Source: a virus. Taken from it: a stretch of DNA of 64,000 nt. How positions within the stretch are numbered: position 1 is the stretch's first letter; the number at the start of each line of letters is the position of its first letter. The stretch spans positions 32,001 to 96,000 of the IMG/VR virus record IMGVR_UViG_3300029922_000014, one strand, 5' to 3'. A program made the translations under genes and the position numbers. The notes below the pieces were generated by a model. That model was not told the origin of the DNA and made no database searches. It was given only the letters and a program-made list of their open reading frames with translations. Below are positions 816 through 63,439 of this stretch, piece after piece.

Positions 816-828
816 TGACACGATGTCA
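816..828. repeat. dispersed palindrome TGACA-N3-TGTCA (intergenic)
   Basis: atTGACACGATGTCAgt. Confidence 0.9.
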
Positions 829-841
829 GTTGATAACGAGG

Positions 842-1051
842 TCAGCCCTTCTTGGCGCGCTTGGCAGAAGCTTTCTCGTGGGCCTTCCGTTCCGCTTCCT
901 TCTGTTCACTGAGCTTCTTGACAAAGCGCTGAAAGCGGTCGAGCGGCATGTCCATGACCCCGACATCCGTGAATCCTCCCCCGCCGTGGTAGAGCAGGAA
1001 GAAGATGTTGGATTCGATGTCTTCAACGCTTGGAAGCTGCCGGACGAAAAA
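842..1051 (-). CDS. gp51-like / tail-chaperone T-like module, probably reached by frameshift from the upstream gene
   Basis: Frame reads FFVRQLPSVEDIESNIFFLLYHGGGGFTDVGVMDMPLDRFQRFVKKLSEQKEAERK...KKG*. It has the FxLxYH..G...V..MP..R pattern and no start codon ahead of the conserved part. Confidence 0.6.
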   Translation of the reverse strand, partial: FFVRQLPSVEDIESNIFFLLYHGGGGFTDVGVMDMPLDRFQRFVKKLSEQKEAERKAHEKASAKRAKKG

Positions 1052-1841
1052 AGTCCGCGGTGATGGGTAACCCCAGTACCCGCGGCATCTGGCACGCCTG
1101 ACAATCGAGGTTGAGCTTCAGGTTGACGCCGGTCTCGACCGCGTCGAGGGCATCGACCATCGCGTAGGTGTCGGGCATGTCGAGGTCGACGATCCAGTGC
1201 TCCGTCTGCACGATGTCGGTCGGCTTGACGTCGTCGATGCTGACGATCTGGCGCGCGAGACGGTGCATCAGGCTGGTGTCTTCGACCTTGCCGGTGACGT
1301 TCTTCATGCGCTTGGCCGCCTGGGCAACCACCTTCTCGTCGGTTCCGCGCAGGAAGCGCAGTTCGACCTTCTTTCCGCATTCGGGCAGCATGCAAACGAC
1401 GGGTTCGACGAACGTCGGCCACGGTTCATTGGTGGCGGGGTTGACGGCATCGCCTTCCATGTGGCAGTCGAGTTTGCCGAGGTCGAAGTTCTTGACCATG
1501 TTGATGTGCGGGCAGTGCTGGCACTTCCAGTTGAAGTTGTAGCCCGCGGTCGGGAAGGTCCAGCGGCGCAGCGCCAACAAGATGGCAAAGCGATCGGACA
1601 TCAGCAGGTCGCGTTGCGGGAACTTGTTCGGCAGGATGGTGCAGTTGTCGATGATGACTGCGGCGCGGTCCTGATCGGCGGAGGCTTCCGATTCGAGGGC
1701 AATCAATTCGCCCGTCTTCATCTTGCGGATGGTGACCTTGCCGTCGGGAATCTTGCCTTCATACAGGCGGCCACGCGACGGCAGCGTGATTTCGAGAGTC
1801 GGAACGGGTTGGGTACCCATGGTCGTTTCCCTTCCCGGCAC
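1023..1841 (-). CDS. baseplate hub / tail assembly chaperone (T4 gp26-like)
   Basis: ITLPSRGRLY, DRFAILLALR, two CxxC pairs, C-terminal PITADFFRP; sits between tube and TMP. Confidence 0.75.
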   Translation of the reverse strand: MPGRETTMGTQPVPTLEITLPSRGRLYEGKIPDGKVTIRKMKTGELIALESEASADQDRAAVIIDNCTILPNKFPQRDLLMSDRFAILLALRRWTFPTAGYNFNWKCQHCPHINMVKNFDLGKLDCHMEGDAVNPATNEPWPTFVEPVVCMLPECGKKVELRFLRGTDEKVVAQAAKRMKNVTGKVEDTSLMHRLARQIVSIDDVKPTDIVQTEHWIVDLDMPDTYAMVDALDAVETGVNLKLNLDCQACQMPRVLGLPITADFFRPAASKR

Positions 1842-1893
1842 TGCCGGGGGATCGGGTGATGATCAAACGCAGCGCCGCATCGGCGCCTAAAAC

Positions 1894-2436
1894 TTAGACG
1901 TAGCCGTCGGCCTCGATCGCCTTGTCGATGGCCAGGGTCAGCGAAACGCTGATCTTGTCCTCGCCGCCCATTTCGATCTCGCCGTGCGAGAAGGCGCTGG
2001 GCCACACACTCTGAAGCGTGTACCGACGCAGGTTGCTGCCGTCGGGGGCGAAGAGGTCGATGTGGCCGGGCTTGGCGTAATTCTGCTTGAGGCCCACGGT
2101 GCCGGTGCGCGGATCGTACACCTGACGCCGCCACGCCAGGAGCAGCGAGACGGTGTTGTAGTTCAGGTATTCGCGGAAGGTTGCGGTGATGTCCTCGTAT
2201 TCGGGCAGGCCGGCAAACTTGCGCTTCTCGTTGAGGTACGCGACCATCGTCGGGCTGTTGGTGACCGACGGCAGCGAAAAGCCGTTGAGCGACAGCGTCA
2301 GGACGTTGTCGTTCGAGGTCAAACCGTCGCCACCGATTCCGGTGACGTACAGCAAACCACCAGCGGCACTCTGCGGCTCCTGAAGGTTCGCAGCGTCCAA
2401 GACGCCCGACAGGAAATTGGTATCGGAAGCAACCAT
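1894..2436 (-). CDS. tail tube protein (T4 gp19-like)
   Basis: KRKFAG..YEDITATFRE, W..QVYDP.TG..G..NYAK, VWPS, LTLAID; follows the sheath gene. Confidence 0.85.
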   Translation of the reverse strand: MVASDTNFLSGVLDAANLQEPQSAAGGLLYVTGIGGDGLTSNDNVLTLSLNGFSLPSVTNSPTMVAYLNEKRKFAGLPEYEDITATFREYLNYNTVSLLLAWRRQVYDPRTGTVGLKQNYAKPGHIDLFAPDGSNLRRYTLQSVWPSAFSHGEIEMGGEDKISVSLTLAIDKAIEADGYV

Positions 2437-2456
2437 GGGAGTTCCTTCGGGTCAGA

Positions 2457-4724
2457 TCAGGCAGTGGGCAGGGTAAGCGAAGCGCCGGTGGGCAGCAGGG
2501 TCACGTCGAGTTCGATCACCTCGGCGGTGTCGAACGGAACGATGAAGAGCTTGGCCTTCATCGTCTTGTTCTGCTGCTGGAGCACCGGGTTGGTGGTCGC
2601 GTCGCAGATGACGTAGAACTGGTCGAGACCGCCGGCCGACTTGAGGCTGGAGAGCCCCGGGTTGACCAAGTCCTGGAGACGCTTCCAGGTGGTCGGGCTG
2701 TTCGGGCGGAAGTCGAGGATCCGCACCGCGGTGGCGCACAGCTTCTCAGCGTACAACAGCATGCGCCGGATCGCCACCTCGTTGAGCGCGCTGGAGACGC
2801 GCGATAGGGTGCGATTGGCGTACACCGTGAGCCCATCGCCGGTGGCGACGAGGTTCAGGATGTAGTTCACGCGGTTGACGATGTTGACGAGATTGCCCTG
2901 ATCACCGGGGTTCGGGCTGTATTCGACCTTGAGTCCGTTGACGTGGCCACGTTCGATGCCGGCCGGGGCCGCCCATGGACCGACTTGACTGTCGTTGAAC
3001 GCGAAGACCGCAGCGGCCGAAGCCGACGGCGGCAGCCAGATGTACGTCTGGTTGTATGCGTCGTAGTACTGGACCCAGGACCAGTACAGGGCGCCATAGC
3101 TCGAATTGAGCGGCGCAGTGGGGGCGTTGGCGATGTAACCGGCGAGACCGTTGTGCCAGTCCACGACCTGCTGGACCGACAGGCCAAAGGGCGGATCGAC
3201 GAGATAGATGAAGTCACCGCGGGTCTGGGCCAGGGTCAGGGCGGCGTTGATCACCGCCTGATTGGTGATGCCTGGAATGGCCAGGACGTTGAACTCGACC
3301 ACGTTGGGGTCTTGGAGAGCCTGAAGCCCGGTGGCCGACTGCCCCGAAACCGTGCCGATGTAGTCGGCGGCGGTCAGGTTGGCGATGCCGTCGGCGCCGG
3401 TGGTGGTGGTGCCGAGAACGTACGTCCCCGGGGTGACCACGCCCGCAACGAGGGTGAGCGAGGACAGGTACGCAGACGGACCGACTTCGTTCGGGATGCC
3501 CTGCACCAGCACGGTGTCGATGAAGCGCGCATTGCCGGCGGTCAGCGACAGGTTGTGGAACTGTTCCACCGGAGCCAGCGCGTTGGTGCCGAGGCTGCCT
3601 TGGGGGTACGACACGAGGATGTCGATGTTGCCCGCAGGAGCGCCGAGGATGACCGTCGGTTGGATCAGGACGCTGATGGCGTTGCCCCAGGTTCCCGGGG
3701 TGAACGCGGACAGCATGACGATGCTGGCGCCGGTTCCGGTCGTTGCAGCGGCGCCACCGGACATGCCGGTGATGATCTGCGTGACGGCCGAACCGTAGAG
3801 GTGCGTGTTTCCGTCCGTACCCACCACGGCTGCCCGCAGGCTCGCCAGCGGCGCATTGGTGCTGATGTTGGTCGCGACATAGCCGAGCAACGTGGCGGCG
3901 TTGATCGCCAGCACGAGGCTCGCCAGGGTGACATAAGCCGTGCTGCCGATCGGAACGGCGATGTGACCGCCACCGGGAGTGGTGTTGGTGAACTCGAAGA
4001 TGGTCTCGGGACTGCCATTGGTCGCGGTGATGATCAACGACGACGCAGCGATGGCAGCGAGCAGGTTCAGGAACGTCGCGTAGGCGTTGGTGCCGATGAG
4101 AACCTGATTGCCCGTGGGGCCAGACGCCACGAAGGTGAAGGTCACCGGGGTCACACCATCGCTGATGACCAGCGTGTCTGCCGCAGTCGGATTCGCACCG
4201 GCGATGAAACGGATCGAACCGGAAGCGGCAACGAGCGAGGTGCCACCGGACATGCCTGCAACGAGCAGAGCAGCCGAGGTGGTGGTGATCGCGACGTTGC
4301 CGGCGGTGCCAGGGGCGTTGCGCGTGAGCAGGACGGTGGGGATCTGCCGGGGGATTGACAGCGTGTCACCGGTGGTCGGATTCGCAGCGAGTCCGACGGT
4401 GCCAGTGGCGTAGGTGGCAGCGGCGGAACCGGTGAAGCCAGGAATGGTGGTCTCAGCGGCAGCGGCGTCGCTATGGGCGACACGCACATACTGGAGGTTG
4501 ATGCCTTCGGCCAGGGGCGGAATGCAGGACTGGATACCGTAGTCGTTCAGGACCGGCGGACCGAACTTGTTGACGAGATCCTGCTGACTGGTGCATTCAG
4601 TCGGCACGCCGATCGGACCCTTCGTGGCACCGCCCATGACGACGATGTTGGTGAGGCCGAGAGCGGGCGCGTACTGCGACCAGTCATATTCCTTGACGTA
4701 GATACCGGCGGGCTGGAATGCCAT
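2457..4724 (-). CDS. contractile tail sheath protein (T4 gp18-like)
   Basis: PAGIYVKEYDWS, GGATKGPIGVP, NVLAIPG, YLVDPP, NSSYGALYWSW, WLPPS, WAAPAG.ERG, IRRMLL. Confidence 0.92.
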   Translation of the reverse strand: MAFQPAGIYVKEYDWSQYAPALGLTNIVVMGGATKGPIGVPTECTSQQDLVNKFGPPVLNDYGIQSCIPPLAEGINLQYVRVAHSDAAAAETTIPGFTGSAAATYATGTVGLAANPTTGDTLSIPRQIPTVLLTRNAPGTAGNVAITTTSAALLVAGMSGGTSLVAASGSIRFIAGANPTAADTLVISDGVTPVTFTFVASGPTGNQVLIGTNAYATFLNLLAAIAASSLIITATNGSPETIFEFTNTTPGGGHIAVPIGSTAYVTLASLVLAINAATLLGYVATNISTNAPLASLRAAVVGTDGNTHLYGSAVTQIITGMSGGAAATTGTGASIVMLSAFTPGTWGNAISVLIQPTVILGAPAGNIDILVSYPQGSLGTNALAPVEQFHNLSLTAGNARFIDTVLVQGIPNEVGPSAYLSSLTLVAGVVTPGTYVLGTTTTGADGIANLTAADYIGTVSGQSATGLQALQDPNVVEFNVLAIPGITNQAVINAALTLAQTRGDFIYLVDPPFGLSVQQVVDWHNGLAGYIANAPTAPLNSSYGALYWSWVQYYDAYNQTYIWLPPSASAAAVFAFNDSQVGPWAAPAGIERGHVNGLKVEYSPNPGDQGNLVNIVNRVNYILNLVATGDGLTVYANRTLSRVSSALNEVAIRRMLLYAEKLCATAVRILDFRPNSPTTWKRLQDLVNPGLSSLKSAGGLDQFYVICDATTNPVLQQQNKTMKAKLFIVPFDTAEVIELDVTLLPTGASLTLPTA
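4356..4368. repeat. dispersed palindrome (inside sheath gene)
   Basis: atTGACAGCGTGTCAcc. Confidence 0.8.
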
Positions 4725-4947: not shown

Positions 4948-6711
4948 TCAGACTTGGTTGCCGCTGTACCCGCCAAGGTAGACCTGCGCTCCGACGTTCG
5001 CAAGGAGCACAGCGGTCGGGGTTCGGGCAACGATTGTTCCGGCAACAGGTTGGATAAGCGCGGCCATACCGACGTTGACGGCAGGATCCACCGCTTGGCT
5101 GTTGGTGAACGTCGGAGATGTGTCGTCGTCCACGTCAAAATAGCCGGAAGCCGATCCCGATGCGAGCGTAGCCAAGATCAGGAGCGGCGAGTTCGGCAGA
5201 CCTGTCCAGGTATACCACGTCTCGCCGCCGACCGCGGTCACTGTCGTAGGCGGTACCTGCGTTCCGGCATGGATCTGACGAATGACGATGTTCGATACCC
5301 AGAAGTTGGCGGCGACATTCGCACCGGCAATGGTCGCAAAGATCGTCGGCGCATTGCAGACCACGAAGAGGTGGACCTTCTTCGGGATCGGAGCGGCCGG
5401 CAGCGGCTTCGCGTAACTGGAGGTGTTGGCACCCTGAACAGTGACCGCACCGAACACCGGCTTCGTGTCGGCGGCAGAGGTGAAGGTATAGGTGAAGGTA
5501 TTCGCGCCAGTGACGGTGATGACGAATGCGCCATTGTACGCACGTGGCTGCGCACCGCAGACGGTGACCGTCGAACCGTTGGGAAGACCGTGCGGCGCAG
5601 TGGTGGTTGCAGTCACGGTGATTGTTCCGGAAGCGAACGCCTTGGTCAGCGTCACGCCAAGAATCGGCGTCGGCGTCTGCCCCAAGAGCAACGTCACCGG
5701 CTGGTCGGAAACGTAGGTGAAGCTGATTGACACGATGTCATTCGACGTCGCGAAGTCAGGAACGATGATCCGTTGGATGATCGGCACGGTGTCGGTTGGT
5801 GCATCCACCGTCATCAGCAGCGTCCCAACAGGAAAGTTTCCGCGGGTGACCTGAGCGATGGTCGCCTCCCCGGTGACCGGCCATTTGACGCTGATCATGT
5901 CGGTGTTGTACGGGATGCTGAACAGATTGTCGGTCTGGTACGCGTAGCTGCCCACAGCATCTGCCACCGCAGGAACATCCGTGGGCGCGGCATTCGGATC
6001 GGGCAGGATGACATCGAAGCCGATCGCCTGCACCTGCGGTGCTTCAGGCGCAGATTTGAACATCATCCACGTGCGCAGGTTGAAACTGTATTCGGTGCGC
6101 AGATAGCGGTAATCATCTCCTTCGAGATCAGAGAGGTCGGAGGACCCCTCATAGCGCAGGCGCTGATTCATCAGGCCCCAGGGCTGGCGATGCATCACGG
6201 GCAGCAGCCATTCGTTGTGTGCCAGTCCTGGGTATGAGCCAAAGAAGGACAGGAACCATTCCTTGATCACAGCTTCGGTGTTGCGGTTGAGACACCACGC
6301 GGTGACGGTGTACGTGGTGGTGTAGTGTCCTGGCCACTCATGTGGGATGTATTGCCCGGTCACCGGGTTGTAATCTCCGGCCTCGAACATCTTTGCAGGA
6401 CCGGCCAGTTCAGGATCGGGCTGCGGTTCACCGCGCTCAAAGGTCAGCATCGGCAGCGGAAACACAGAGAAGTCCTTGGCATTCGCCGTTGCACCTTTTC
6501 CTGTGGTGGTGATCCAGCCGGTGGTGACCAGCGTATCGACAATGGTGGCGTATTCGCGGGCGGGGCTGCCTTGAATGATCAGGATCGGAACTTGGTTCTT
6601 GGCGACGCCGTGATCGGTCTGGTCGTAATCGACGAGCAGCCCTTGCAGCCACTTCACGATGGCGAAGTCGTGGATCCGGAGCGTATCTTCGTAGGTGGTC
6701 TGTTGGGCCAT
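4948..6711 (-). CDS. tail completion / sheath stabiliser (gp15-like) with beta-rich C-terminal extension
   Basis: PLPMLTFER and YLRTEYSFNLRTWM resemble gp15-type terminators. C-terminus contains the TTAPHGL...VTV.GA...YNG.FVITVTGANTFTY beta module. Confidence 0.6.
   Translation of the reverse strand: MAQQTTYEDTLRIHDFAIVKWLQGLLVDYDQTDHGVAKNQVPILIIQGSPAREYATIVDTLVTTGWITTTGKGATANAKDFSVFPLPMLTFERGEPQPDPELAGPAKMFEAGDYNPVTGQYIPHEWPGHYTTTYTVTAWCLNRNTEAVIKEWFLSFFGSYPGLAHNEWLLPVMHRQPWGLMNQRLRYEGSSDLSDLEGDDYRYLRTEYSFNLRTWMMFKSAPEAPQVQAIGFDVILPDPNAAPTDVPAVADAVGSYAYQTDNLFSIPYNTDMISVKWPVTGEATIAQVTRGNFPVGTLLMTVDAPTDTVPIIQRIIVPDFATSNDIVSISFTYVSDQPVTLLLGQTPTPILGVTLTKAFASGTITVTATTTAPHGLPNGSTVTVCGAQPRAYNGAFVITVTGANTFTYTFTSAADTKPVFGAVTVQGANTSSYAKPLPAAPIPKKVHLFVVCNAPTIFATIAGANVAANFWVSNIVIRQIHAGTQVPPTTVTAVGGETWYTWTGLPNSPLLILATLASGSASGYFDVDDDTSPTFTNSQAVDPAVNVGMAALIQPVAGTIVARTPTAVLLANVGAQVYLGGYSGNQV
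5728..5740. repeat. dispersed palindrome (inside CDS)
   Basis: atTGACACGATGTCAtt. Confidence 0.9.
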
Positions 6712-6731: not shown

Positions 6732-6744
6732 TGACACGATGTCA
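6732..6744. repeat. dispersed palindrome (gene junction)
   Basis: atTGACACGATGTCAgt. Confidence 0.9.
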
Positions 6745-10264: not shown

Positions 10265-10277
10265 TGACGTCGTGTCA
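10265..10277. repeat. dispersed palindrome, 1-mismatch variant
   Basis: gatTGACGTCGTGTCAatc. Confidence 0.8.
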
Positions 10278-11049: not shown

Positions 11050-11056
11050 GCCGCAC

Positions 11057-11083
11057 ATTATACAACATGCGCGTTGACGTCAA
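11057..11083 (-). promoter_or_regulatory. promoter TTGACG-N15-TATAAT, ATG 7 nt downstream (leaderless)
   Basis: Read directly on the minus strand. Confidence 0.65.
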
Positions 11084-12742: not shown

Positions 12743-14242
12743 CTACTTGAGCGTGGAGCGCTTGATGATCTTGGCGGCGAGGGCGACCCCGCCTTCCGCA
12801 ACGATCTTGTCCTGGTTTTCGGAGATGGACTCCGAGACCACAGAAAGACCGGTGGGGAGTGACCGACGCTTCTTGGGCGGGGCGATGGCGTTGGTCTGCG
12901 CTTCGGCCACGGGGACCTGGGCATGCACGACCTTGGTGAGATCACGAATGGTGGCGTTGAGTTCCACGAGGCTGGTGGCCTCCTCCAACTTGAGCCGGTG
13001 AGGGGCCAAGTCGGGCATTTCTTTCACCGCTTCTTCCACCGCCGCCTTCAGAGGCGATTCGGTTTTCCGCTTCGACTGCTTCGCGATCACGTCAGTAGCT
13101 GCCTCCAAACGGGCGGCCATCTTGGCGTTTTCTTCGACTTCGGCTGCGAGCTTGTCTTGAAGCATTGACACCGTGTCAGTTGCTTCAACCAGCTTGGCAT
13201 CCGCGTCGCTGAGCCGTTCACGCAGCCCGACGTTCTCCTGAACGGAGATGTCGACCTGCCGCTGCAACGTCTCGATGACCGGGGTGAACGTCTTGGCGGG
13301 TGCTTTCGGCTTGAGCAATTCGATGGATTCGGACAGCTTGCGCTGCAACCACCCACGAACGTTCTTTGCCTCCTGCGCGTCGATCAGCGCCTCCGCCTCG
13401 AAGTCGTTCACCTGCTTGAATCGGGTGACCAGCGACGACGCAAAGGCGTGCTGTTCCGTTTCAGTCAGGGTTGCGACTACGGTGGCGTTGGCGTCGGTCG
13501 CGCTTTCGACCAGGGCCTTCACTTCCTCGCTCATCTCTCCAGAGACCTTCACAGCCTCCGGCATCTTGTTCCCGATCAGCGTCGGGTACGCCCCGGGAGT
13601 GCTGGGGCGCATGACGGCGTCCCAGGTCTCAACCAGAAAGTCGGATTCACTGACGGTACCCTCGGCATTGACCGAACCGATACCGCGACTGGAAACACCC
13701 CAGCGAATGTTCTTGAGGGTGTATTCCTGAAGGATCAGGCCATGGGGGGTGTCGAGAAGTTCAGCCTTCCCCCACACGACACCGTCTTCGTTCAGCTTGA
13801 GGTCGGTGACCAGGAGAGCGCCGAGGGGTCCGTAGGTGCGACCGTTCTCAGGATGCTCGAAAAGTCCGAGCATGGCACGCTTGCGCATCGCCTCCATGAC
13901 CGCCGACTTGTTGGCAATCAGACGTTCCCAGACCTTGCGCGGGTAGGTGCGGCCATTGGCATTCTTGACATCGGAACGCTGGAACGGTCCTTCAACCATC
14001 CACTTGCCGTCCTTGACGTACTTCTTGCCATTCTCGCGTTCGAGGAGGTCGAGCTTGTCGATGCTCTCGACGAGAACGCGCCCATCGCCCTGACAGGATT
14101 CGGTCAGCAGTTTTCCGGCCGGGGTGGCTTGGCCTTCGACCACGAAGACCTTCTGCCCCTGCTGCACATAGCGCAGATCGGGGAAGAAGGCGCCTTCGTA
14201 GCCTTCACAGATCCGAACGCGCTTCGCTTGGGAGTTGGACAT
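12743..14242 (-). CDS. prohead protease (T4 gp21-like) fused to a coiled-coil scaffold
   Basis: GPFQRSDVKNANGRTYP, LG.FEHP, GKAELLDTPHG, GVSSRGIGS, WDAV.RPSTPGAYP, followed by about 250 aa of acidic coiled coil. Confidence 0.9.
   Translation of the reverse strand: MSNSQAKRVRICEGYEGAFFPDLRYVQQGQKVFVVEGQATPAGKLLTESCQGDGRVLVESIDKLDLLERENGKKYVKDGKWMVEGPFQRSDVKNANGRTYPRKVWERLIANKSAVMEAMRKRAMLGLFEHPENGRTYGPLGALLVTDLKLNEDGVVWGKAELLDTPHGLILQEYTLKNIRWGVSSRGIGSVNAEGTVSESDFLVETWDAVMRPSTPGAYPTLIGNKMPEAVKVSGEMSEEVKALVESATDANATVVATLTETEQHAFASSLVTRFKQVNDFEAEALIDAQEAKNVRGWLQRKLSESIELLKPKAPAKTFTPVIETLQRQVDISVQENVGLRERLSDADAKLVEATDTVSMLQDKLAAEVEENAKMAARLEAATDVIAKQSKRKTESPLKAAVEEAVKEMPDLAPHRLKLEEATSLVELNATIRDLTKVVHAQVPVAEAQTNAIAPPKKRRSLPTGLSVVSESISENQDKIVAEGGVALAAKIIKRSTLK
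13166..13178. repeat. dispersed palindrome (inside protease-scaffold gene)
   Basis: atTGACACCGTGTCAgt. Confidence 0.9.
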
Positions 14243-15434: not shown

Positions 15435-15485
15435 TGACACGGTGTCAGTTGAACGATGCACAGATGGCGGACTGACACGATGTCA
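15435..15485. repeat. two adjacent palindrome copies (15435-15447 and 15473-15485)
   Basis: atTGACACGGTGTCAgt and ggcggacTGACACGATGTCAgtccgcc. Confidence 0.9.
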
Positions 15486-19600: not shown

Positions 19601-22600
19601 AGCAGTTTGCGGAACTCGGTCAGCGTCCCATGCCAGTTGCCCTGGGCGGCGGTAGTCTGAATGAGGTGATTTTTGTTTGCGTCGGGGTGAACATAGTATG
19701 CCGGCTCATCCAGCGGGGTTTTGGGAGGTCCCCAGCCACTGGACGGAAGCTCACTGAGCGGCGCGCAGATGAACGTGGCGGCCTGCGTCATCATCACCAC
19801 ATAGGTCTTGAGCGCGCCGTCGGCAGTTTCGACGCCGACGCTCCCAAGCACGAAACAGCCCCAGAACGACGAACCGGTGTCGTCGTTGACCATTCCATAT
19901 TCGGCGCCGGCAGTGGTGGAGAGCTTGATGATCGCCTGCCCCTGCAACTTCTTCTTCACCGCCTGAATCATGTCGGTGGTAAACGGAACGGAGCCTTCGA
20001 GCAGCGCTTCCCAAACATCCTCGTACGGCGCTGGCGGGATGTTCTGACCTGCGTTGTCGGTGGCCGCGGTGGGCTGTGAGGTGTAGTCGGCTTGTTTGGG
20101 CTTTGCAGCGAGGATGTTGCCGTTCGTCGTCAGCCACTTTTCGGTATCCTTCACCACCTGCTTGTCGCGCACAGAGAGTTCTGCGTACCAGTTGGAGTCT
20201 TCGTAATTGTCCATCGGGACCAGGAAGGTCTCTTCTGTCTCTTGGGGATCCTGGTCTTTAAAGCCGGTCAGAGAGCCACCCGTGGGCTTGGCAATGAACA
20301 GGCGGGTGATCGACGTGGACCCCATGTAATCGCCCAGGTGAGCCAGCGGGACGCAAGAGATGCCAACCTCCTCGAACACTTCGCGCACGGCTGCCTTCTC
20401 GGTCGATTCGCCCGGGTCAACGCCGCCCTTCGGGAAGGTCTTGGAATAGCCACCGAACTCGTTCAGCGGATGCACCAGCAGAAGGTAATGGCAGCCGGTA
20501 GTGGCCCCACCAATCGCTGCGCCGGGGGGAAAGACCACCACGCATCCGGCGGCTGGCTTCTTGCCTGCGATCGTGGCGAACGTCGGTTGCTCAACCGCAG
20601 TGGGGTTGTTCCAGCCCTGGGGCTTCTCACACGGGATTGACACGGTGTCAATCGTCACCGCGCAGTTGTTTTCACCGGGTTTGAAGGTGGCAACGCCGAC
20701 ATGACCAAAGCCATCGGGAAGCGCCGGTTCCTGCTGTGACCACTGGAACTTAAAGCTGACGGGATCAACCTCACCCGCAACATCCTGAACCAGCGGCGTG
20801 CCTTGCCCCGGGGCGGTCGAGTCCTTGAACCAGAACCAGCCAGCGACTACGCCTTCGGCACCGCTGGTATGTTTGACCTGGGTGCCAATAGGAAAGAAAA
20901 CACCTTCAGGCGCCGGGACAAGGTGGTACCCCTGATGATTCGCGATCCAGGCGGTGACTTCTTCCGACGGCGCATATCCCAGCGGCGAACTGGGCTGGCC
21001 CTCTTCCTTCTTCTCCCAGTTCGATGGCTTGGAAACGGTGAAATACGCCTTGCCGTCCCCGTTCTTGACAACTGCCATGGGCTTCTGTCCTGAGACGAGA
21101 GGGTGGGATCTGACCCACCCCACTACCGTCACGACAACGCCCGCTCCGATCTTGTCCGTAAGCTCCGTTCCGACCGGAAAGAACTCGCCGGCTGGCGCAT
21201 GGACCAGGGTGTAATGAAGATCATTCGCCCAATCCTGAAGTTGCTGTGAAACGACATATCCGGATGCAGGCGGAATGAACTGGTCTGGCTCTTTCTTCGT
21301 CCAGGCTTCAGGGTTGAACGCGATCGACGGCGGACCGCCTCCGGGGCTCTGGGAAAGCATGAACGTCTTCGCGAGGATGGATGCCGATCCCGACGTTTTC
21401 TTCACGTACCCAGAAACGACTTCAGTCGTCCCGTAACCGACCACTTCGGTGCCGATCGGAAACTCTCCGGGCGGAACAGGAACAAAAACGTAGCCTGCCT
21501 GTTCGGCGTATTCCTGATGGTGCTGCGAAACCTCGTACCCCAACGCAAGCGATGACGTCGGCGCTTCGACCGGCTCGTCGATGATGCTGGCAACCGGAAC
21601 ACCGCCAATCACCTGTCCAACAATCCACTGCGGCGGGCCGCCCGACTGCGTGACGCTGTCGATGTAGTAGTACGTCACGTTGCCAACAGTGACGCCCCCC
21701 AGCATCTGCATGGCCTTTGGCCCATACGTCAGATAGGGCGGTTTCGTAAGCCACTTGAACGCATCGGCTGGATGGCAGTTGTGCACGACCACGCCATAAG
21801 CGTCATCAACCGCCTTGAAGTCGATATCGGGAGTCACCGGACTGCCGTGCATCGGAAGGAGCAACGCGAGCTTGTACTTTCCAGCGGTCTCGTCGACAGC
21901 GAGCACGTACATGTGCGTCTCGACCTGCTTCCCTTTCGGGATCAGGATGTCGCCTGCCTTGAAGGCCGGAACGGGCTTGGACACCACGGGCGGAAAAACC
22001 GCGATAAGCGGGAATGTCACCGTGTCCTCGATGTCCGCGTCGATCGTTTCTGCGGTGCAACGCCACATGACCCACTTGCCGTCCTTCGCAGTGTATGCGT
22101 ACGCCCAGGAATAGCCGTCGAGGTCGATCGTGTACGTTTTCGTCGCGTAGGCGAGTTCAGCCTTCCCATCCCCGGTCGGATCGGAAATGAACGCACAGGC
22201 TTTTGCAGCGGTGGAAGCAGTGCCGATGAACTCGTTTTCGCCACTCTCGTCGAAGGTCTCGGCAATGACCTTTACCGACGTTGCGCCGAACAGCGCCAGC
22301 GGAGCCAACCAATAGGTCGTGACTCCGGCTTTGGTGCCGATGTGCCCAATCCAATACCGCATCTTCTCTTCGTTGTTTCGCACGATGTCGTTGACGCTGA
22401 ACTTCGGAACGTACGCCTTGGGCATCTCCGGTGCCTTCTTCCACACCGGCGTGATCTCGCCGCTTTCGATCTTTGCTGCGAGCGCGTCGTCTTCGTAGTC
22501 GTCGATGTCACCATCGTCATCCTGGCAGATGACCAGAACATCATCGACAACGACCGCTTCGCCGTTTTCATCTGTCGCGGGCAGGTCTTTGACTTCGATC

Positions 22601-24018: not shown

Positions 24019-24470
24019 GGTGTTCTCCGATGCTTGCTCTTGGCGTCACGCTCTTCGCGACGTTTGAGCACCTGGGATGGAAGCTTGATTGACACGATGT
24101 CAGTCTTCGGCGGCTTGAGCTTCGTCAGCAAAGCGCTCAGCGCATCTGCATTCGCTGGCGCCTCATGGAACTTGTCTTTGTACCGAACGGAGAGCGCGCC
24201 CATGAGACCGATGACGTGGACGGTGTAGTCGTGCTGGGTGAGCTTTTTGACGGCCTTGTCCACCTCGGTCACGGACCAGCCACGCGCCAACAAAGCCGCC
24301 TGTGAGGCTTCTGGAACGATCAGCGACTTCGAGGTCTGTCCGTACACCCGACGCGAAACTGCGGCGAGCGGAGAGAGCGTGCGGGGATTGATGAGGGCGT
24401 ACCCGGCTTCCTTCACCAGCGCTTCAGCGCGCGGGTGTAGTGGGCTGGTCAGGACGACGGCGACTTTCAC
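24015..24470 (-). CDS. hypothetical protein
   Basis: Coupled to the giant gene by a GTGA overlap. Confidence 0.55.
   Translation of the reverse strand: MKVAVVLTSPLHPRAEALVKEAGYALINPRTLSPLAAVSRRVYGQTSKSLIVPEASQAALLARGWSVTEVDKAVKKLTQHDYTVHVIGLMGALSVRYKDKFHEAPANADALSALLTKLKPPKTDIVSIKLPSQVLKRREERDAKSKHRRTP
24090..24102. repeat. dispersed palindrome (inside CDS)
   Basis: atTGACACGATGTCAgt. Confidence 0.9.
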
Positions 24471-26200: not shown

Positions 26201-26213
26201 TGACACGGTGTCA
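26201..26213. repeat. dispersed palindrome (intergenic)
   Basis: acTGACACGGTGTCAgt. Confidence 0.9.
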
Positions 26214-26223: not shown

Positions 26224-29200
26224 TCAGACGGCGGGAACGAAGCTGATGCCGGTGCCGGTGAAGACTGCCTGTACCTTTTCGGCCGCGATGCGACCGGTGG
26301 TGACGGTGACGGTGTTCTCTTCGATCTTCACTTCGGTGTCGCGCGGGGCACCGGCGTCCTCAGCGAATTGCAGGAACTCGTCGAGGCGATTGCGCGGGAA
26401 GGTGATCACCACCGTGGTGTAGTCAAGACCTTCGAGCGACAGTCCCTTTCCGAGGGTGCGCTTGATGATCGGGTTGGCATGGGTGATCTTGCGCGCCATC
26501 GCACGCCGGCCGGGGCCAGCCTTGTACGCTTCGACCAGCGCTTGGGTCTTCGCGCGGAAGTCCTCGGGCAGGTCGTTCTTGGCGCACTGCTCCATCTCCG
26601 CAAAGAACTCGTCGTCGTCCATGCGGCGGATGGATTCGACCCATTCCTTCACGGTGTCACCCACGGTGGACGGCATCTTGAAGTCGGCGGCGCTGCCCGT
26701 GGTCCCGCAGTTGTCGCAGGAGCACTTGCCGTCTTTCACGGTGATGCCCTGCGTGGCTTCGCACTTCGGACAGGCCATCTGCAAGTTCATGCTGGCGTTG
26801 CTGGTAGTGCCTTCAGGCACGGAAGCCGGAACGTCATCATCCCCCGCGCCGCCGGCATCGTTCTGCGGCCCCTTGGTCTTGGCATCGCGCACGCCGGTGT
26901 TGGTCTTCTTGACCTTCTTCTGATTGACCGCAACACCATCCGGATCGAGGTCTTCTTCAGACTCATCCAGCTTCTGGGCGTTGGCAGCCGCGACGCCGGC
27001 CTTGAAGCGCGGGTGACGTTCGACCGGATTTGCGTTCGGATCGAAGGTAGCTTGGTGCTTCTTGAAGTAGGTGTGGTCCTCGTCGGAGTGCTTCTTGAAC
27101 GTGGCCGCCAGCTTGTGGTTGCCTGCTTTCTCATGGCGGTCGGCCATGGTCCGCAGATACCCGGTACGCTGGGCGGCGTTCAGGTAGTTGGAATGGGTGA
27201 CGCCCTTCTTGTCGCCTTCGTCCATGCCCGAATCCGGCTTGGTCTTCGAGAAGCCGCCCTTGCTGCCGGGACCGGTCTGGACCAGCTTGTTGCTGGCCAC
27301 CTTGCCCTTCTTGCCCGGGATGCCGGTCTCCTTTTCGCCTTCGCCGTCCTCGCCGGTTTCCTCTTCCTCTTTGACCAGCTTGCCCGACCAGTTCTTGGGC
27401 TTGATCGCACCCATGCGGAAGTGCTTGGCGGTGAGGGTGTGGCGGCGACCTTTGCGATGAGCGCGGGCGGTCAGGCCTTCGACGACAGACGCGAGCAATT
27501 CCTTGCCTGCCGCTTCCGCGATGGCCTGAGCGGCTTCGAGCGCAAAGGCCGGTTCGTCTTCGGAGACGGCTTGGTCGTAGGCGTCGATCAGGTTGCTGTC
27601 GATGGTGGGGTCAGCACGGAACATCTCCGCCAGGACGTTGCCCATGGCGTCGTACCATTCGTTCTTGGACTGCGGCACGTAGACATAGCCCTGCTCCTGG
27701 GCCTTCTGGCTCAGATAGGCTTCGCCGTTCGAGAGGTCGTCCTGATCGGACAGGTCGCACTCGACGGAGTCGATGATCGCGCCGTCGCCGTCATAGCCCT
27801 TGCGGAGTTCGAGTTTGCCTTCGCCGGGAACGATGACCGCGCAGCCTTCATCCGGATCCTCGCCGGTGCTGTCGTCGTCGCCGTCGTCATCCTTGCCCGC
27901 ATACGGGCTGACGGTGCCGTTGCCTTCGCCGGGGAAGAGACCGGCCTTCTTGGCCTTGATCACTTCTTCGACGTCTTCCTTGGTGGCGTTTTTGGAATGG
28001 AGCGCGCGGGCGGCGGTCGCGAACGCCTTGTTGTCGGACGCTTTCTTGAAGTCGACCTTGAACTTGGCGTCGTCGGAAGCCGGCGCGGTGCCGCCATGCT
28101 CCGTAGCGAGCTTGCGCAGTTCCGCATGCGGGAGGTGCTTCTTGATCATCTCCATGTCGAAGGTGGTCGAGGTGTCCGACTCTTCGAGAGCTTCGTCGAT
28201 CGCCGGACCGCCGCCGGTCTGATGCCCCGGATTGGTCACCCAATGCCCGCGCGCGTTGTCTTCATTTCGCACCAGCATCTGGCCGAGTTGGAAGCGCAGG
28301 TCTTCATATTCGCGACGCTGGCTCTTGCCGCCGAGGTACAAGGTGGCGTCGTCATCGGGGCCGAGCTTGTCGGACAGGGAGTCGTTCACGCTGGCGTGGA
28401 GTTCCGCGATGCGCTTGCGGGCTTCCGCGGGATCGTAGGTGTTGGCGTCGTCTTCGTTGAGCGATTCTTTGACCTTTTCGGTGGGATGAATCCCCTCCAA
28501 ACGCTTGTGCTCTTCCTTTGCAGCCTTGATGAAGGCGGGGTGCTTCATGACATCTTCGGCGTCGCCTTCTTTTCTGACCTTGGCGTATTCCGCAGAGGCG
28601 CCAGTGAATGCGCTGTGCGCGTCATTCGCAGAGTGCATGAACGGGCCATTCTCGAACTTGGCACGTTTCGCGTGTTCGCGTTTCGCGTAGCTGTGCCCAG
28701 CATCTTCGGCATGATACTCGGCGGTCCTGGGAGTCTTCGGCACCGGCTTACGCTCGACATACGCTTCAGCCAAAGCAGCGTTGATTGACACGGTGTCAGT
28801 GTCATCGGTCACCGATTCATTCACGACCTTCTCACGCAGCTTGATGTCGAGGGCCTTGACCTTAGGGTCGGCCTTGAGCGCGACCATGATGGCATTCGCG
28901 AGCTTGTCGCCCTGGTCCTCGCACACCGTCTTGATGGCGCGCTGCATGACGAACTCGGCCAGTGCGTACGACGGAGTCTCGTCGATGAAGTTGTCGCTGC
29001 GGAAGCTGATGCCGCAGTAGTTGGCGTATGCTGCTGGCTGCCCCGCCGCCATGAGTCCCTTGTTTTCGCCATCGACGCCGACGATCTTCATCCAGGCTTC
29101 GGTGAGCGCGACGCTGGCGGCCTGCTCGTCGATCTCTTCGGATTCGGTGAGCTTGAGGAGGGACTTGTGGATGCCGTCCACGTCCTCTTTGGTCAGCTTC

Positions 29201-30566: not shown

Positions 30567-30593
30567 ACCATACGCCAACTGACACGATGTCAA
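30567..30593 (-). promoter_or_regulatory. promoter TTGACA-N15-TATGGT whose -35 is one arm of a TGACA-N3-TGTCA palindrome
   Basis: Read directly on the minus strand. Confidence 0.6.
30580..30592. repeat. dispersed palindrome (overlaps promoter -35)
   Basis: acTGACACGATGTCAat. Confidence 0.9.
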
Positions 30594-32468: not shown

Positions 32469-32830
32469 AGACGCCTCTCAGAGGCGCGTACAGCGGCTTT
32501 CGTTACCGTAAAGACCCAGGGCCTGCTGTCGGATCCCAAGCGATATCCGTAGGCCTTCATGAAGGCTGATCCGGTATCGGTACCGGTTCGGGAAATGATC
32601 GAACGGACGTCGCCAGACGTCACCAGCGTATCATTGATCACGGTGCGCAGTCCACACCGACGGCGGGCTTCCATGGTATGACTGGACAGAATCTCGATCA
32701 CCCCCGGAATAGATGACCAGCGCGCGTACACCACGCAGGCAGGACACGGCAGATCCTCGACACTGGCTTCGTAGACGAAAACGCCAGGGACGGTGCTGAA
32801 GCGTCGGGCGACGGTGGGCTTGATTGACAT
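32462..32830 (-). CDS. GNAT-like protein
   Basis: EILSSHT.EARRRCGL, GSAFMKAYGY; its start codon lies inside a palindrome copy. Confidence 0.45.
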   Translation of the reverse strand: MSIKPTVARRFSTVPGVFVYEASVEDLPCPACVVYARWSSIPGVIEILSSHTMEARRRCGLRTVINDTLVTSGDVRSIISRTGTDTGSAFMKAYGYRLGSDSRPWVFTVTKAAVRASERRLC

Positions 32831-32837
32831 CGTGTCA
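32825..32837. repeat. dispersed palindrome (supplies a stop and a start codon)
   Basis: atTGACATCGTGTCAgt. Confidence 0.9.
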
Positions 32838-34531: not shown

Positions 34532-34544
34532 TAACACGACGTCA
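34532..34544. repeat. dispersed palindrome, 2-mismatch variant
   Basis: aaTAACACGACGTCAat. Confidence 0.5.
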
Positions 34545-38350: not shown

Positions 38351-38363
38351 TGACACGATGTCA
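38351..38363. repeat. dispersed palindrome (intergenic)
   Basis: atTGACACGATGTCAat. Confidence 0.9.
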
Positions 38364-41268: not shown

Positions 41269-41294
41269 CAGCGCAACACCCACAACATGCCAAC

Positions 41295-41307
41295 TGACAC
41301 GATGTCA
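41295..41307. repeat. dispersed palindrome (intergenic)
   Basis: acTGACACGATGTCAat. Confidence 0.9.
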
Positions 41308-41312
41308 ATCGA

Positions 41313-43008: not shown

Positions 43009-43565
43009 TGCGCACGCGGCGATTTCATGGAGGAAACGGACCGCGCGGCGATACTCTGACGATAGCGCGCTTCGATGATGACAGCCTCTTCCTGACCGAA
43101 CTCGTTGGCAAGGTCGTGGTATGCCGCACGCCCTGGACACTCCCATACGAGATCATTGTCGCTTTGTAGTGCGCTCGCCCTTTTTGGCGTCTGGTGCAAG
43201 AACTCCCGGGCCATTTCCCAAATGGTGTTGTATACCGCCTCTGCCATTTCCGCAGGGAGCGGGTCTGCCCGCAGATACGCGGTACAAATCTGCCAGAGTT
43301 CATCCGACGTGATGCCCCGGCGCCCCTCTTCGATCTCAACCAGAATCGGGAAGGACCAGCCAAGCTGATGCGCTGCCTGCGTAGTGGTCAATCCGCACTT
43401 CTCGCGAAGGTCGCGCAGCTTCATTCCGATCGCCTGCCAGTCGATTGTCTTCGACGGCGCGTCGCGCTTTACCCTGCGGTTCACGAGGTATGCGACGGTA
43501 GCACCACACGAATAGAGCACTGCCAAAACAGCAGCCAAAAACACGATGGCGGCAATGATTGACAT
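43005..43565 (-). CDS. XRE-family HTH protein with N-terminal transmembrane segment
   Basis: IGMKLRDLREKCGLT..QAA..LG......EIEEGRR; start codon inside a palindrome copy. Confidence 0.7.
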   Translation of the reverse strand: MSIIAAIVFLAAVLAVLYSCGATVAYLVNRRVKRDAPSKTIDWQAIGMKLRDLREKCGLTTTQAAHQLGWSFPILVEIEEGRRGITSDELWQICTAYLRADPLPAEMAEAVYNTIWEMAREFLHQTPKRASALQSDNDLVWECPGRAAYHDLANEFGQEEAVIIEARYRQSIAARSVSSMKSPRAQ

Positions 43566-43572
43566 CGTGTCA
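43560..43572. repeat. dispersed palindrome (supplies a stop and a start codon)
   Basis: atTGACATCGTGTCAgt. Confidence 0.9.
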
Positions 43573-47405: not shown

Positions 47406-47445
47406 GGCTGGCTCCTGATCCGTGGGATCGTCGGTTGTGCCGCTG

Positions 47446-47499
47446 ATGGTACCGACCTTGAATCCCTGTCAATGCGCAGTTTTCCGCGTCATGCACAAA
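47446..47499 (-). promoter_or_regulatory. promoter TTGACA-N15-TACCAT plus CGCGTCATGC box (47480-47499)
   Basis: Read directly. Confidence 0.65.
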
Positions 47500-47507: not shown

Positions 47508-47520
47508 TGACATCGTGTCA
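47508..47520. repeat. dispersed palindrome (between terminator and promoter)
   Basis: atTGACATCGTGTCAgt. Confidence 0.9.
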
Positions 47521-51688: not shown

Positions 51689-51701
51689 TGACGACGTGTC
51701 A
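51689..51701. repeat. dispersed palindrome, 1-mismatch variant
   Basis: atTGACGACGTGTCAgt. Confidence 0.8.
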
Positions 51702-52972: not shown

Positions 52973-52985
52973 TGACACGATGTCA
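52973..52985. repeat. dispersed palindrome (intergenic)
   Basis: atTGACACGATGTCAat. Confidence 0.9.
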
Positions 52986-56799: not shown

Positions 56800-56812
56800 T
56801 GACACGATGTCA
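56800..56812. repeat. dispersed palindrome (supplies a stop codon)
   Basis: atTGACACGATGTCAat. Confidence 0.9.
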
Positions 56813-61351: not shown

Positions 61352-61650
61352 CGTAGTGCCTTCTTGAGTTTGTTGCGGGTCTTGCGGTACGCCTTCTTGT
61401 CGATCGGCTGCTTGCCGGTGCCCTTTCGGTAAAAGCCGGATCGGCGCAGGTCATCTTCCTTCGCCGCCTGCACGTTCATGTCCACACCGTTCATCCAGGT
61501 GATGAAGTGGGCGTTGGTGGTTTGGCGAAAGTGGCCGCCCTTGGCATGCAAAGCCTCCGCCTCATCCGCGAATGCCATCGGCACGGGGTAACCGTAGTAG
61601 GACGGAACGGGATCGACGGTCTCTTGCATGACACTTCCTCGGATTGACAC
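61348..61650 (-). CDS. hypothetical protein
   Basis: Coupled; alternative ATG at 61629 with a GAGGA RBS. Confidence 0.5.
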   Translation of the reverse strand: MSIRGSVMQETVDPVPSYYGYPVPMAFADEAEALHAKGGHFRQTTNAHFITWMNGVDMNVQAAKEDDLRRSGFYRKGTGKQPIDKKAYRKTRNKLKKALR

Positions 61651-61657
61651 GATGTCA
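61645..61657. repeat. dispersed palindrome (gene junction)
   Basis: atTGACACGATGTCAgt. Confidence 0.9.
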
Positions 61658-62862: not shown

Positions 62863-63080
62863 GACGCAAACTCCCCGCGCCACGCTTCGTCGCGGTCAGT
62901 GTATGGATCCGGTTCAACGCTGATGATGCGGCAGCCACAGAAGCGCATGGGCTTTCCATCCACAATCGCTTCGTAGTCGAACTTGTCAGCGTCAGGAGCA
63001 GCTGCCAGTACGGCAGCAAGCTGTCGGCGCCATTGTTCTAACAACGCAGACACGCTGGTATCAATGTGCTGTTCAATCAT
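62859..63080 (-). CDS. hypothetical protein
   Basis: First gene behind the N15 promoter at 63100. Confidence 0.5.
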   Translation of the reverse strand: MIEQHIDTSVSALLEQWRRQLAAVLAAAPDADKFDYEAIVDGKPMRFCGCRIISVEPDPYTDRDEAWRGEFAS

Positions 63081-63099
63081 ATCATTTCTCGCGTAGTGC

Positions 63100-63126
63100 A
63101 CGATATGGACCGGAACGAACTGTCAA
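63100..63126 (-). promoter_or_regulatory. promoter TTGACA-N15-TATCGT
   Basis: Read directly. Confidence 0.6.
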
Positions 63127-63158
63127 CGACCAGTGAAAGAACTTCGCCCGCTGCATGT

Positions 63159-63360
63159 TGTTTCCCGCGTCATGCGACGACATGGACAGGATTCCTGCGC
63201 GTGGATGTACATAGCGCACTATGCGTTATTTCTCCCCTGGACAATATTCCTGTTTCCCGCGTCATGCGACGACATGGACAGGATTCCTGCGCGCGTGTTT
63301 TCATAGCGCATGACGCGACATTCTGCACCTGGATATAATTCCTATTTACCGCGCTATGCG
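63159..63360. repeat. 92-bp-period tandem repeat (about 2.2 units) with an exact 43-bp core
   Basis: 63159-63201 equals 63251-63293; ATAGCGCA and CTGGA...ATTCCT recur at +92. Confidence 0.85.
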
Positions 63361-63426
63361 GTAATGGCGAGCACGAAGAGGGAAGGCTTAACCGATATCC
63401 AGGTGCGTCCGTAGTCGTCACCTGAT

Positions 63427-63439
63427 TGACATCGTGTCA
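63427..63439. repeat. dispersed palindrome (supplies a stop codon)
   Basis: atTGACATCGTGTCAgt. Confidence 0.9.

Follow-up and report, generated by a model that had tools for sequence, protein, structure and literature searches.

Why a virus would keep one short palindrome at regular intervals along its chromosome, inside essential genes as well as between genes, is the question raised by this locus. The palindrome, TGACA-N3-TGTCA, was noticed in a 64,000-nucleotide stretch of DNA (the window) that comprises bases 32001-96000 of the 150,436-bp complete virus record IMGVR_UViG_3300029922_000014; positions below are those of the window unless they are marked as genome positions. The record represents an uncultured phage, here called G000, and its relatives are called G001-G009 or carry L numbers. 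Its G+C content is 59.6%, and because its ends are direct terminal repeats of 127 bp it was assembled as a circle of 150,309 bp. A preliminary description, made from the letters of the window, had proposed that a dimeric protein coats the phage DNA at these sites. The analysis reported here suggests that the palindromes form a genome-wide array of loading sites for the phage's own orphan clamp protein of the ParB/Noc/KorB family, for which we infer binding and which would work as KorB does with its operator OB. This explanation is considered modestly probable.

Copy number and consensus of the palindrome

The window contains 21 exact copies of TGACA-N3-TGTCA, all of them where the preliminary description had placed them, compared with 0.09 expected and at most 1 in dinucleotide shuffles. 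The whole genome has 50 exact copies, and a genome scan with a position weight matrix (PWM) built from them added 7 strong near-copies, giving 57 sites in total. The near-copies score 14-26 bits whereas the maximum in the reversed-sequence control was 5. Three variants had been picked out by eye in the window, and these are indeed near-sites, with one mismatch at 10265 and at 51689 and two at 34532, scoring 14-24 bits. The position matrix gave a 17-bp consensus, A-Y-TGACA-[C/T]-S-[G/A]-TGTCA-R-T, which consists of two 8-bp half-sites flanking one central base. The TGACA/TGTCA arms are invariant, and the AT/AC...GT/AT flanks previously described were borne out by an A at -2 in 97% of sites and a Y at -1 in 95%. 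The centre had also been said always to contain CG, and this holds for all sites, whose seven types of central triplet (CGA, TCG, CCG, CGG, GCG, CGC and CGT) always bring a CpG because at least one half is TGACAC.

Spacing of the sites

The sites are spaced far more evenly than chance would place them. The 50 gaps between exact sites on the circle have a coefficient of variation (CV) of 0.55 compared with 0.98 under the null, and none of 100,000 simulations was as regular (P<1e-5). The largest gap is 6,434 bp compared with a null mean of 13,517 bp, and only 5 gaps are under 1 kb compared with 13.9 expected. Gene structure is not the cause of this evenness, since a junction-only null in which sites were drawn from the 197 gene junctions gave a CV of 1.05. 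Additionally, five of the seven near-sites fall in the gaps ranked 1, 2, 3, 4 and 6 (P=0.009), and the three variants noticed by eye are all among these gap-filling sites. Counting the near-sites as well gave 55 loci, with a CV of 0.485, no gap above 5,509 bp and a gamma shape of 3.5. The even spacing that had been claimed was thus confirmed as under-dispersion against random gaps, and the gap range reported for the window (1.0-5.2 kb, mean 2.7 kb, with one close pair) is right when the three variants are counted in.

Sites within and between genes

Every confident gene of G000, as called by a self-trained gene model, lies on the minus strand. When the sites are read on this sense strand, 22 of the 50 are intergenic and in 12 more the TGA of the site is the stop codon that ends the upstream gene; a few are in doubtful filler open reading frames (ORFs). 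In all, approximately 34-38 sites (about 70%) fall in non-coding DNA, which makes up 6-10% of the genome. Eleven or twelve sites are truly intragenic, mostly in long genes such as those for the DNA polymerase, proteins of 2450, 1250 and 1151 amino acids (aa), the tail sheath, the protease and a 587-aa virion protein. All eight sites in ORFs of at least 500 aa share the frame nnT GAC Ann nTG TCA, which avoids an in-frame stop and a cysteine codon. The encoded peptide, x-Asp-Thr/Ile-Met/Val/Leu-Ser, is not conserved in orthologues, and the copy in the protease gene lies in a lineage-specific segment. Orthologues in relatives bear their own palindromes at different spots of the same genes. Because the peptide is unconserved and the orthologues carry their own palindromes elsewhere, it is the DNA word and not the protein that is kept. 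On the sequence evidence, the palindromes are under selection at the DNA level, even inside essential genes.

Half-sites and the possibility of a hairpin

An inverted repeat can be kept as a protein site or as a nucleic acid hairpin, and the two make different use of pairing between the arms. In the relative G006, whose sites mix TAACA and TGACA half-sites, the variable arm position is Watson-Crick compatible in 10 of 29 sites and 10 would give A.C mismatches. In G000, 17 of 50 sites have complementary Y/R flanks, and each of the seven near-sites is altered in one arm without compensation in the other. A structured RNA or DNA hairpin was rejected on this absence of compensatory changes. Relative to transcription, the central triplet can point either way (TCG in 23 sites, CGA in 15), and no T-run was seen after the sites in G000, which ruled out an intrinsic terminator. 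A hairpin promoter of the N4 type was rejected as well, as there is no phage RNA polymerase among the large proteins, the loop occurs in both orientations and pairing does not covary. Since the half-sites vary independently, without pairing covariation, the palindrome is best read as a double-stranded DNA site for a dimeric protein that would recognise each of its two half-sites independently. This agrees with the dimeric target first proposed, as the arms are invariant and pairing is not preserved.

Palindromes in related phages

Relatives were drawn from IMG/VR and metagenome contigs, with capsid proteins 47-64% identical to that of G000, shared gene order and one-strand coding. All of their palindromes share one geometry of two 8-bp half-sites around a single central base, although the word differs. 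The complete 156-kb genome of G003 has 17 copies of CCAGTGACA-CGC-TGTCACTGG (gap CV 0.42, P=1.5e-4), G006 (143 kb) has 29 copies of TRACAC-W-GTGTYA (CV 0.52, P=5e-5), and G007 (74 kb) has 17 copies of ATTTACGC-N-GCGTAAAT (CV 0.47, P=0.004). Other forms are TTGAC-N5-GTCAA in G004, with 20 copies that serve as the -35 element of TTGACA-N17-TATACT promoters, GTGAC-N5-GTCAC in G001 (10 copies), CTGGAC-N5-GTCCAG in G005 and G002, TGACAC-type palindromes in G009, G008, L099 and L100, TAGACA-N3-TGTCTA in L087 and TTAACGA-N-TCGTTAA in L095. Spacing in the fragments G001, G004 and G005 was not significantly regular. The central CG is not kept in relatives, where it is replaced by CAA/TTG in G004, CTG in G006 and W in G007. 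Orthology of site positions is partial: a site stands upstream of the same 123-aa gene in G000, G003 and G005 despite the different word, and many other positions have turned over.

Gene content and lifestyle of the phage

G000 has a myovirus gene set that includes a tail sheath, a T4-type major head protein, a prohead protease, baseplate proteins, a portal, a terminase and a DNA polymerase. Its replication and recombination genes encode a DnaB-like helicase, a primase, a UvsX/RecA-like protein, an SbcCD-like pair, FEN and ThyX. Its capsid protein is at most 32% identical to those of cultured or catalogued phages, and a megablast search of window positions 1-25000 against catalogued phages gave no match. 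A search of the genome found no tyrosine integrase, and no match to ParA (PF01656) was found in the complete genome using a search whose control was positive in 14 of 14 genomes. No capsid relative or prophage was found among approximately 185,000 bacterial and archaeal species genomes, and no phage RNA polymerase was found among the large proteins. Because none of these was found, G000 looks like a lytic-type phage that relies on the host polymerase. As a separate observation, coding is strictly on one strand in G000 and nearly so in G001-G009, which is unusual for myoviruses of 140-156 kb with T4-type capsid genes.

An orphan ParB as the candidate binder

The preliminary description had proposed four helix-turn-helix (HTH) proteins of the window as binders (a MerR type at 31384, a GerE/LuxR type at 41000 and XRE types at 43005 and 47957). 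None is conserved in the relatives that keep the array. BLAST found no orthologue of any of the four in the relatives, models of the GerE and MerR types matched only G000, and matches to the XRE types were sporadic and absent from the complete G003 genome. A different candidate lies approximately 32 kb past the end of the window, where a 396-aa ParB homologue is encoded at genome positions 128145-129335 (minus strand), with a ParB_N domain (PF02195, E=1.3e-14) and an HTH_ParB domain (PF17762, E=5.7e-7). It is the only sequence-specific HTH protein among the 43 genes common to G000, G003 and G006. HTH_ParB was also found by genome search in G000, G006 and G007. A single-sequence scan of viral contigs with ParB returned nothing; orthologues were recovered using alignments, and full-length ones are present in G003, G006, G007, G009 and a dozen metagenome contigs. 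The gene lies between the UvsX/RecA-like gene and FEN in G000, G003, G006 and G007.

The closest sequence matches of the protein among solved structures are Caulobacter ParB and Noc, it aligns with Caulobacter ParB across the nucleotide boxes xPR, GxRR and ENxxR, and it is closer in sequence to chromosomal ParB and Noc than to KorB. The residues of the cytidine triphosphate (CTP) pocket (R75, G116, R118, R119, E156, N157 and R162) and R201 of the helix are invariant in 19 ParB orthologues. An AlphaFold2 model (mean predicted local distance difference test, pLDDT, 82.6) comprises an N-domain, an HTH region (helices 167-245), a disordered linker and a three-helix C-domain (298-373). Foldseek placed Noc, ParB and KorB at the top of the matches to this model, with template modelling (TM) scores of 0.81 for ParB-parS (6t1f) and 0.76 for KorB-KorA-DNA (8qa9); the C-domain had no match among solved structures. 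A predicted homodimer of the C-domain scored 0.68 compared with 0.00 for the best control, a score reached by 20 of 30 proteins solved as one-chain pairs and by 1 of 23 solved as single chains. The runs agreed in 100% of contacts with a partner pLDDT of at least 85, and the prediction supports homodimerisation of the C-domain. The N-terminus is an Ala/Pro/Lys-rich tail that is much longer and more basic in G003, and the ParA-activating motif LG[KR]GL is absent from it in G000. As the genome has neither ParA nor this motif, the protein is an orphan ParB and not part of a partition system.

Further observations favour a link between this protein and the palindromes. Five lineages that differ in their palindromes have a site 42-98 nt upstream of parB. 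The two most deviant palindromes (ATTTACGC and TTAACGA) are paired with the two most deviant recognition helices, and three loci with GTGAC-N5-GTCAC share one recognition helix. A simple code relating residues of the recognition helix to bases of the half-site was sought and did not emerge.

Promoters and companion palindromes

The strict promoter pattern TTGACA-N15-TAnnnT occurs 13 times on the sense strand of the whole genome and never on the antisense strand, and it is absent at spacers of 14, 16, 17 and 18. Under the looser form TTGACR-N15-YAnnnT, 11 of 17 promoters use the left arm of the palindrome as their -35 element, with the palindrome spanning approximately -34 to -18, and the promoter of parB is among those overlapped. 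Promoter-supplying sites therefore make up 11 of 50 on the genome and 1 of 21 in the window. This matches the earlier statement that most copies are not at recognisable promoters, since in the window only the site at 30580 is part of a TTGACA-N15-TAnnnT promoter. The broader claim that the sites are architectural and not gene-specific operators held in part: even spacing and the position of most sites away from promoters favour it, but about one-fifth of sites overlap a sigma70-like -35 or spacer, including that of the parB promoter. An operator role probably coexists with an architectural role at about a fifth of the sites, judging from their positions. The KorB-OB regulon likewise has many copies with some at promoters and others far away, and here 11 of 50 are at promoters and the rest are at junctions or in genes. 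The relatives G004 and G009 use a 17-bp promoter spacer.

Two companion palindromes accompany the promoter-associated sites. Box B, CCGCR-N3-YGCGG (often TTTCCGCGTCATGCGGAAA), has 12 copies genome-wide, including one in the window at 30596-30620 (minus strand), and it lies 23-24 bp upstream of the main palindrome in seven promoter cassettes. A second regulator, perhaps a KorA-like partner, may use it as its operator. A third palindrome, GGTCC-N3-GGACC, has 10 copies outside the window (for example, genome 101600-113700) in the 5' leaders of genes driven by the cassettes, where it stands 35-59 nt past the main site and immediately ahead of GGAG-ATG. It might form a hairpin in the leader or serve as a further binding site.

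Proposed mechanism

Under the proposed explanation, ParB dimers would load at each palindrome, and bound ParB would close into a CTP-dependent clamp and slide for roughly a kilobase or two, as ParB and KorB do. The mean half-gap between sites is approximately 1.4 kb and the largest is approximately 2.8 kb. As sites recur every 2.7-3 kb and the longest interval is 5.5-6.4 kb, a clamp could reach any part of the chromosome. At 11-14 promoter-embedded sites, including the one in the parB promoter, ParB would occlude the host RNA polymerase and act as a global and self-regulating repressor. The remaining 40 or so sites would provide genome-wide coverage for silencing or timing, for organisation of the replicating DNA or for marking of self DNA. 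A wider form of this idea is that large phages with T4-like capsids, probably lytic, have as a whole clade tiled their chromosomes with evenly spaced orphan ParB-CTP clamp sites, as a sequence-addressed viral 'chromatin' that shuts promoters and organises or marks the DNA, with protein and site co-evolving. This generalisation is tentative and falls somewhat short of an even chance. If it is true, every base lies within approximately 3 kb of a site and clamps cover the whole of the viral genome.

Several points weigh against the ParB clamp. The link between ParB and the palindrome is drawn from co-occurrence, conservation and family precedent. There is no clean helix-to-base code, as G000, G009, L099 and G003 share the TGACAC half-site while their helices differ. 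No site lies directly upstream of parB in G003 and G007, the repeat in G003 extends to 21-25 bp, which is long for a pair of ParB half-sites, and the fragments G001, G002, G004 and G005 leave the parB region uncovered. Canonical parS is even in length (16 bp), whereas the site here is odd-length like KorB OB. G000 ParB has GHRR where canonical ParBs and 17 of the other 18 aligned orthologues have GERR (L093 has GGRR), and this change may alter CTP hydrolysis. Finally, ParB is not alone in being conserved, as a 133-aa HU/IHF-family protein and several unannotated core proteins are conserved as well.

The last point is the basis of the alternative that survives best, in which a different dimeric DNA-binding protein of the phage, either that HU/IHF-family protein (genome 120124-120525) or an unannotated core protein, binds the array in the same coverage role and ParB is unrelated to it. 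The HU-family protein (PF00216, E=5e-10) is one of the core proteins and is encoded next to packaging genes, several small core proteins carry no annotation, and the imperfect match between ParB helix and site leaves room for another binder. However, most HU-family proteins bind without sequence specificity, and the sites of IHF lack symmetry and are A/T-rich, whereas invariant G+C-rich arms of 5-7 bp with independently read half-sites suit HTH dimers better than HU or IHF. ParB in turn has family precedent in the parS, NBS and OB palindromes and has the site at its own promoter in five lineages. This alternative is considered unlikely.

The sites could also be targets of an enzyme, such as a homodimeric PD-(D/E)XK endonuclease, a nickase or a methyltransferase, or Chi-like signals. 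They would then provide regularly spaced nicks or entry points for recombination or repair, or would shield the DNA from exonucleases while it replicates by recombination. The core proteins include a PDDEXK_15 endonuclease (166 aa), the recombination set of the phage is complete (UvsX/RecA-like, SbcCD-like, FEN), the constraint of never being too far from a site would suit exonuclease or recombination signals, and the central CpG in G000 is a possible modification target. This CpG is lost in G004, G006 and G007, however, and Chi-type signals are short, asymmetric and oriented. Cutting 50 sites in its own genome would harm the phage, and the methyltransferase (MTS domain) is outside the gene set shared by G000, G003 and G006. 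Such a role is improbable.

An operator or 'stoperator' network of one of the HTH regulators of G000 (GerE/LuxR, 41000-41416; MerR, 31384-31998; XRE, 43005-43625 or 47957-48565), acting through control of initiation and a block to elongation at gene junctions, is quite improbable. It would account for the identity of the half-site with the -35 consensus TTGACA and for the resemblance of GerE-type HTHs to sigma region 4, for the 11 sites that overlap promoters at about -34 to -18, where MerR-type operators are located, for the many sites at gene junctions, as with the stoperators of L5, and for the sites at the 5' edges of the GerE and XRE genes. However, relatives whose arrays have the same half-site lack the GerE and MerR proteins, and the XRE types are missing from the complete G003. 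Since no integrase, ParA or prophage relative was found, there would be no lysogeny to silence, a lytic cycle would suffer from roadblocks in the genes for the sheath, protease and polymerase, and even spacing is not expected from gene-specific operators.

That the palindrome acts as a nucleic acid structure (an RNA hairpin for processing, stabilisation, antitermination or termination, a DNA cruciform, an N4-type hairpin promoter or a single-strand priming signal) is highly improbable, for although a possible 5-7-bp stem with a 3-nt loop has the geometry of an N4 virion RNA polymerase promoter, the G003 version could form an 11-bp stem, one-strand coding means that every copy is transcribed and many copies lie just before ribosome-binding sites, pairing covariation, loop orientation, T-runs and the search for a phage RNA polymerase all speak against it, and copies within essential genes would be cut or would terminate transcription.

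Comparison with known systems

ParB-family CTP clamps serve in the segregation of chromosomes and plasmids (ParB), nucleoid occlusion (Noc) and plasmid-wide silencing (KorB). The KorB-OB system of plasmid RK2 resembles the array of G000 in combining a ParB-fold protein that has an HTH with many copies of an odd-length palindrome (OB is 13 bp) that has a central S base (PMC11790492). KorB slides to promoters up to 1.5 kb away (PMC11790492). This range of approximately 1.5 kb matches the half-spacing of the sites here, and in both systems some sites overlap a -35 element, others are far from promoters and the gene's own promoter has a site. RK2 has 12 OB sites on 60 kb, and even spacing is not reported for them. 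By comparison, G000 has 50-57 sites on 150 kb that are evenly spaced and also lie within genes, no IncC/ParA and no KorA-like partner was identified in it, it is probably a lytic phage and not a plasmid, and the C-domain of its ParB matches no solved structure.

Among published observations, the nearest is a repeat in Cluster O mycobacteriophages, of which Corndog has 34 copies in approximately 70 kb, in the form of a 17-bp dyad, TGTTCGG-N3-CCGAACA (PMC4351075, PMC6439249). The two repeats have in common invariant inverted arms around three variable bases, more than 30 copies, many of them at junctions, some in genes and most away from promoters, and a centre without an orientation rule; the Cluster O phage is also non-temperate and encodes a protein with a ParB-like domain (PMC4351075). 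Its authors predicted a dimeric binder acting outside transcription initiation, and gave neither a function nor a link to ParB (PMC4351075). The differences are that Corndog is an unrelated prolate siphovirus of Mycobacterium with another repeat sequence and that the paper gives no spacing statistics (PMC4351075).

The stoperators of Cluster A phages (L5 gp71) are likewise dozens of 13-bp sites, often in short intergenic gaps or over stop and start codons. One of them is a true promoter operator, and they resemble a -35 element (PMC12266134). Stoperators are asymmetric, oriented with transcription and bound by the immunity repressor of temperate phages (PMC4351075), whereas the sites here are palindromic, evenly spaced and in a genome without lysogeny genes. 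The symmetry of the site and the lack of lysogeny genes in the phage mean that it is no stoperator.

ParB-parS, Noc-NBS, MatP-matS and N15 SopB all resemble the array in that copies of a 13-16-bp palindrome, dispersed over a replicon, are recognised by a dimeric protein. Noc, as an orphan ParB that marks most of a chromosome, is similar to the protein proposed here, but it requires an N-terminal membrane helix, which was not seen in G000 ParB. The matS form GTGAC-RNY-GTCAC equals the pattern of the relative G001; the resemblance is one of form alone, and MatP has a different fold (ribbon-helix-helix). In contrast to the present sites, parS clusters near the origin and acts with ParA. Phage N15 is a precedent for dispersed sites of a ParB-family protein (SopB) in a phage genome, but it carries no more than four of them and, being a plasmid prophage, has SopA. 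In a survey of proteins with the ParB fold, the canonical form with an HTH came mostly from chromosomes and plasmids and not from phages (PMC12704722), and the phage ParBs that activate thymine dioxygenases lack an HTH (PMC13229309). A search for a TET/JBP dioxygenase partner gave no match, but its control also matched nowhere and the search is uninformative.

Use of a clamp in this way is not yet in print for a lytic phage. If the ParB explanation is true, an evenly spaced genome-wide array in a lytic-type phage, kept even inside essential genes, is a new use of the ParB clamp, and site spacing should mirror the sliding range of the clamp. The Cluster O repeat, a puzzle for a decade (PMC4351075), would then have a mechanistic explanation as well. 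The series of cognate pairs of protein and site, with the half-sites TGACAC, TAACAC, TAGACA, TTTACGC, TTAACGA and TGGAC, would be a natural system for the evolution of ParB specificity and a source of orthogonal DNA-labelling tools.

Sites in the window and additional observations

The sites of the window are listed in Table 1.

Table 1. Exact and near-copies of the palindrome in the window, with gene context (- denotes the minus strand)
Position	Site	Context
816..828	exact	gene junction: 13 nt after stop, 20 nt before ATG of 1039-aa gene
4356..4368	exact	within tail sheath gene (2457-4724, -); frame nnT GAC Ann nTG TCA
5728..5740	exact	within 587-aa virion protein gene (4948-6711, -)
6732..6744	exact	gene junction, 20 nt upstream of ATG of 587-aa gene
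10265..10277	near-site, 1 mismatch, PWM 24.1	just past stop of ORF 10279-11058; divides largest gap of genome, 6434 into 2901 + 3533
13166..13178	exact	within prohead protease gene (12743-14242, -), in segment absent or unalignable in orthologues
15435..15447	exact, first of pair 38 bp apart	intergenic, 17 nt before ATG of 186-aa gene (14857-15417)
15473..15485	exact, second of pair	12 nt after stop of 136-aa gene (15498-15908)
20638..20650	exact	middle of 2450-aa NUDIX gene (16666-24018, -); 3368 nt from start, 3972 from stop
24090..24102	exact	near 3' end of 151-aa ORF (24015-24470); 71 nt upstream of start of 2450-aa gene
26201..26213	exact	intergenic; 10 nt after stop of 1151-aa gene, 54 nt before ATG of 402-aa gene
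28786..28798	exact	within 1151-aa gene (26224-29679, -)
30580..30592	exact, -35 of sigma70-like promoter TTGACA-N15-TATGGT	promoter at 30560-30592, - strand; Box B 24 bp upstream; only such site in window
32825..32837	exact	gene junction; TGA of motif is stop codon of upstream ORF
34532..34544	degenerate near-site, 2 mismatches, PWM 14.4	in fourth-largest gap
38351..38363	exact	intergenic, accessory-gene region
41295..41307	exact	at or upstream of 5' end of GerE/LuxR-type gene (ORF 41000-41416, -)
43560..43572	exact	TGA is stop of upstream ORF; 5' edge of XRE-type gene ORF (43005-43625, -)
47508..47520	exact	intergenic, 72 nt after stop; followed by separate TTGACA-N15-TACCAT promoter (about 47440-47480)
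51689..51701	near-site, 1 mismatch, PWM 18.1	5' end of 721-aa gene; in sixth-largest gap
52973..52985	exact	intergenic, 4 nt after upstream stop
56800..56812	exact	intergenic
61645..61657	exact	gene junction: 1 nt after stop, 15 nt before next ATG
63427..63439	exact	TGA is stop codon of 111-aa gene 63437-63772 (-)

Copies at the 5' edges of the GerE/LuxR-type (41295-41307) and XRE-type (43560-43572) regulator genes suggest that these G000-specific regulators are probably controlled by the palindrome binder. The palindromes of G003 and G005 often have TGTAGAC(AGG) 10-35 nt further on, as at L007 32-70 and G005 66299-66345, which is perhaps a different type of promoter.

Other genes are of interest in their own right. 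The HU/IHF-family protein (133 aa) and the PDDEXK_15 endonuclease (166 aa) are, besides ParB, the nucleic-acid proteins of the core set; they are encoded together (genome 120124-121033), and in every large relative the pair precedes the large terminase gene by two genes. An ADP-ribosylglycohydrolase gene (PF03747, E=1.9e-62; genome 106985-107950) adjoins a composite promoter, and its product may reverse ADP-ribosylation by the host or by a defence system. Finally, the 2450-aa protein in the head-gene region (window 16666-24018, minus strand) has a central NUDIX domain (residues approximately 1179-1272) as its sole recognisable part and is too large for a myovirus tape measure; its homologues in relatives are in ORFs of approximately 2,600-3,300 aa.

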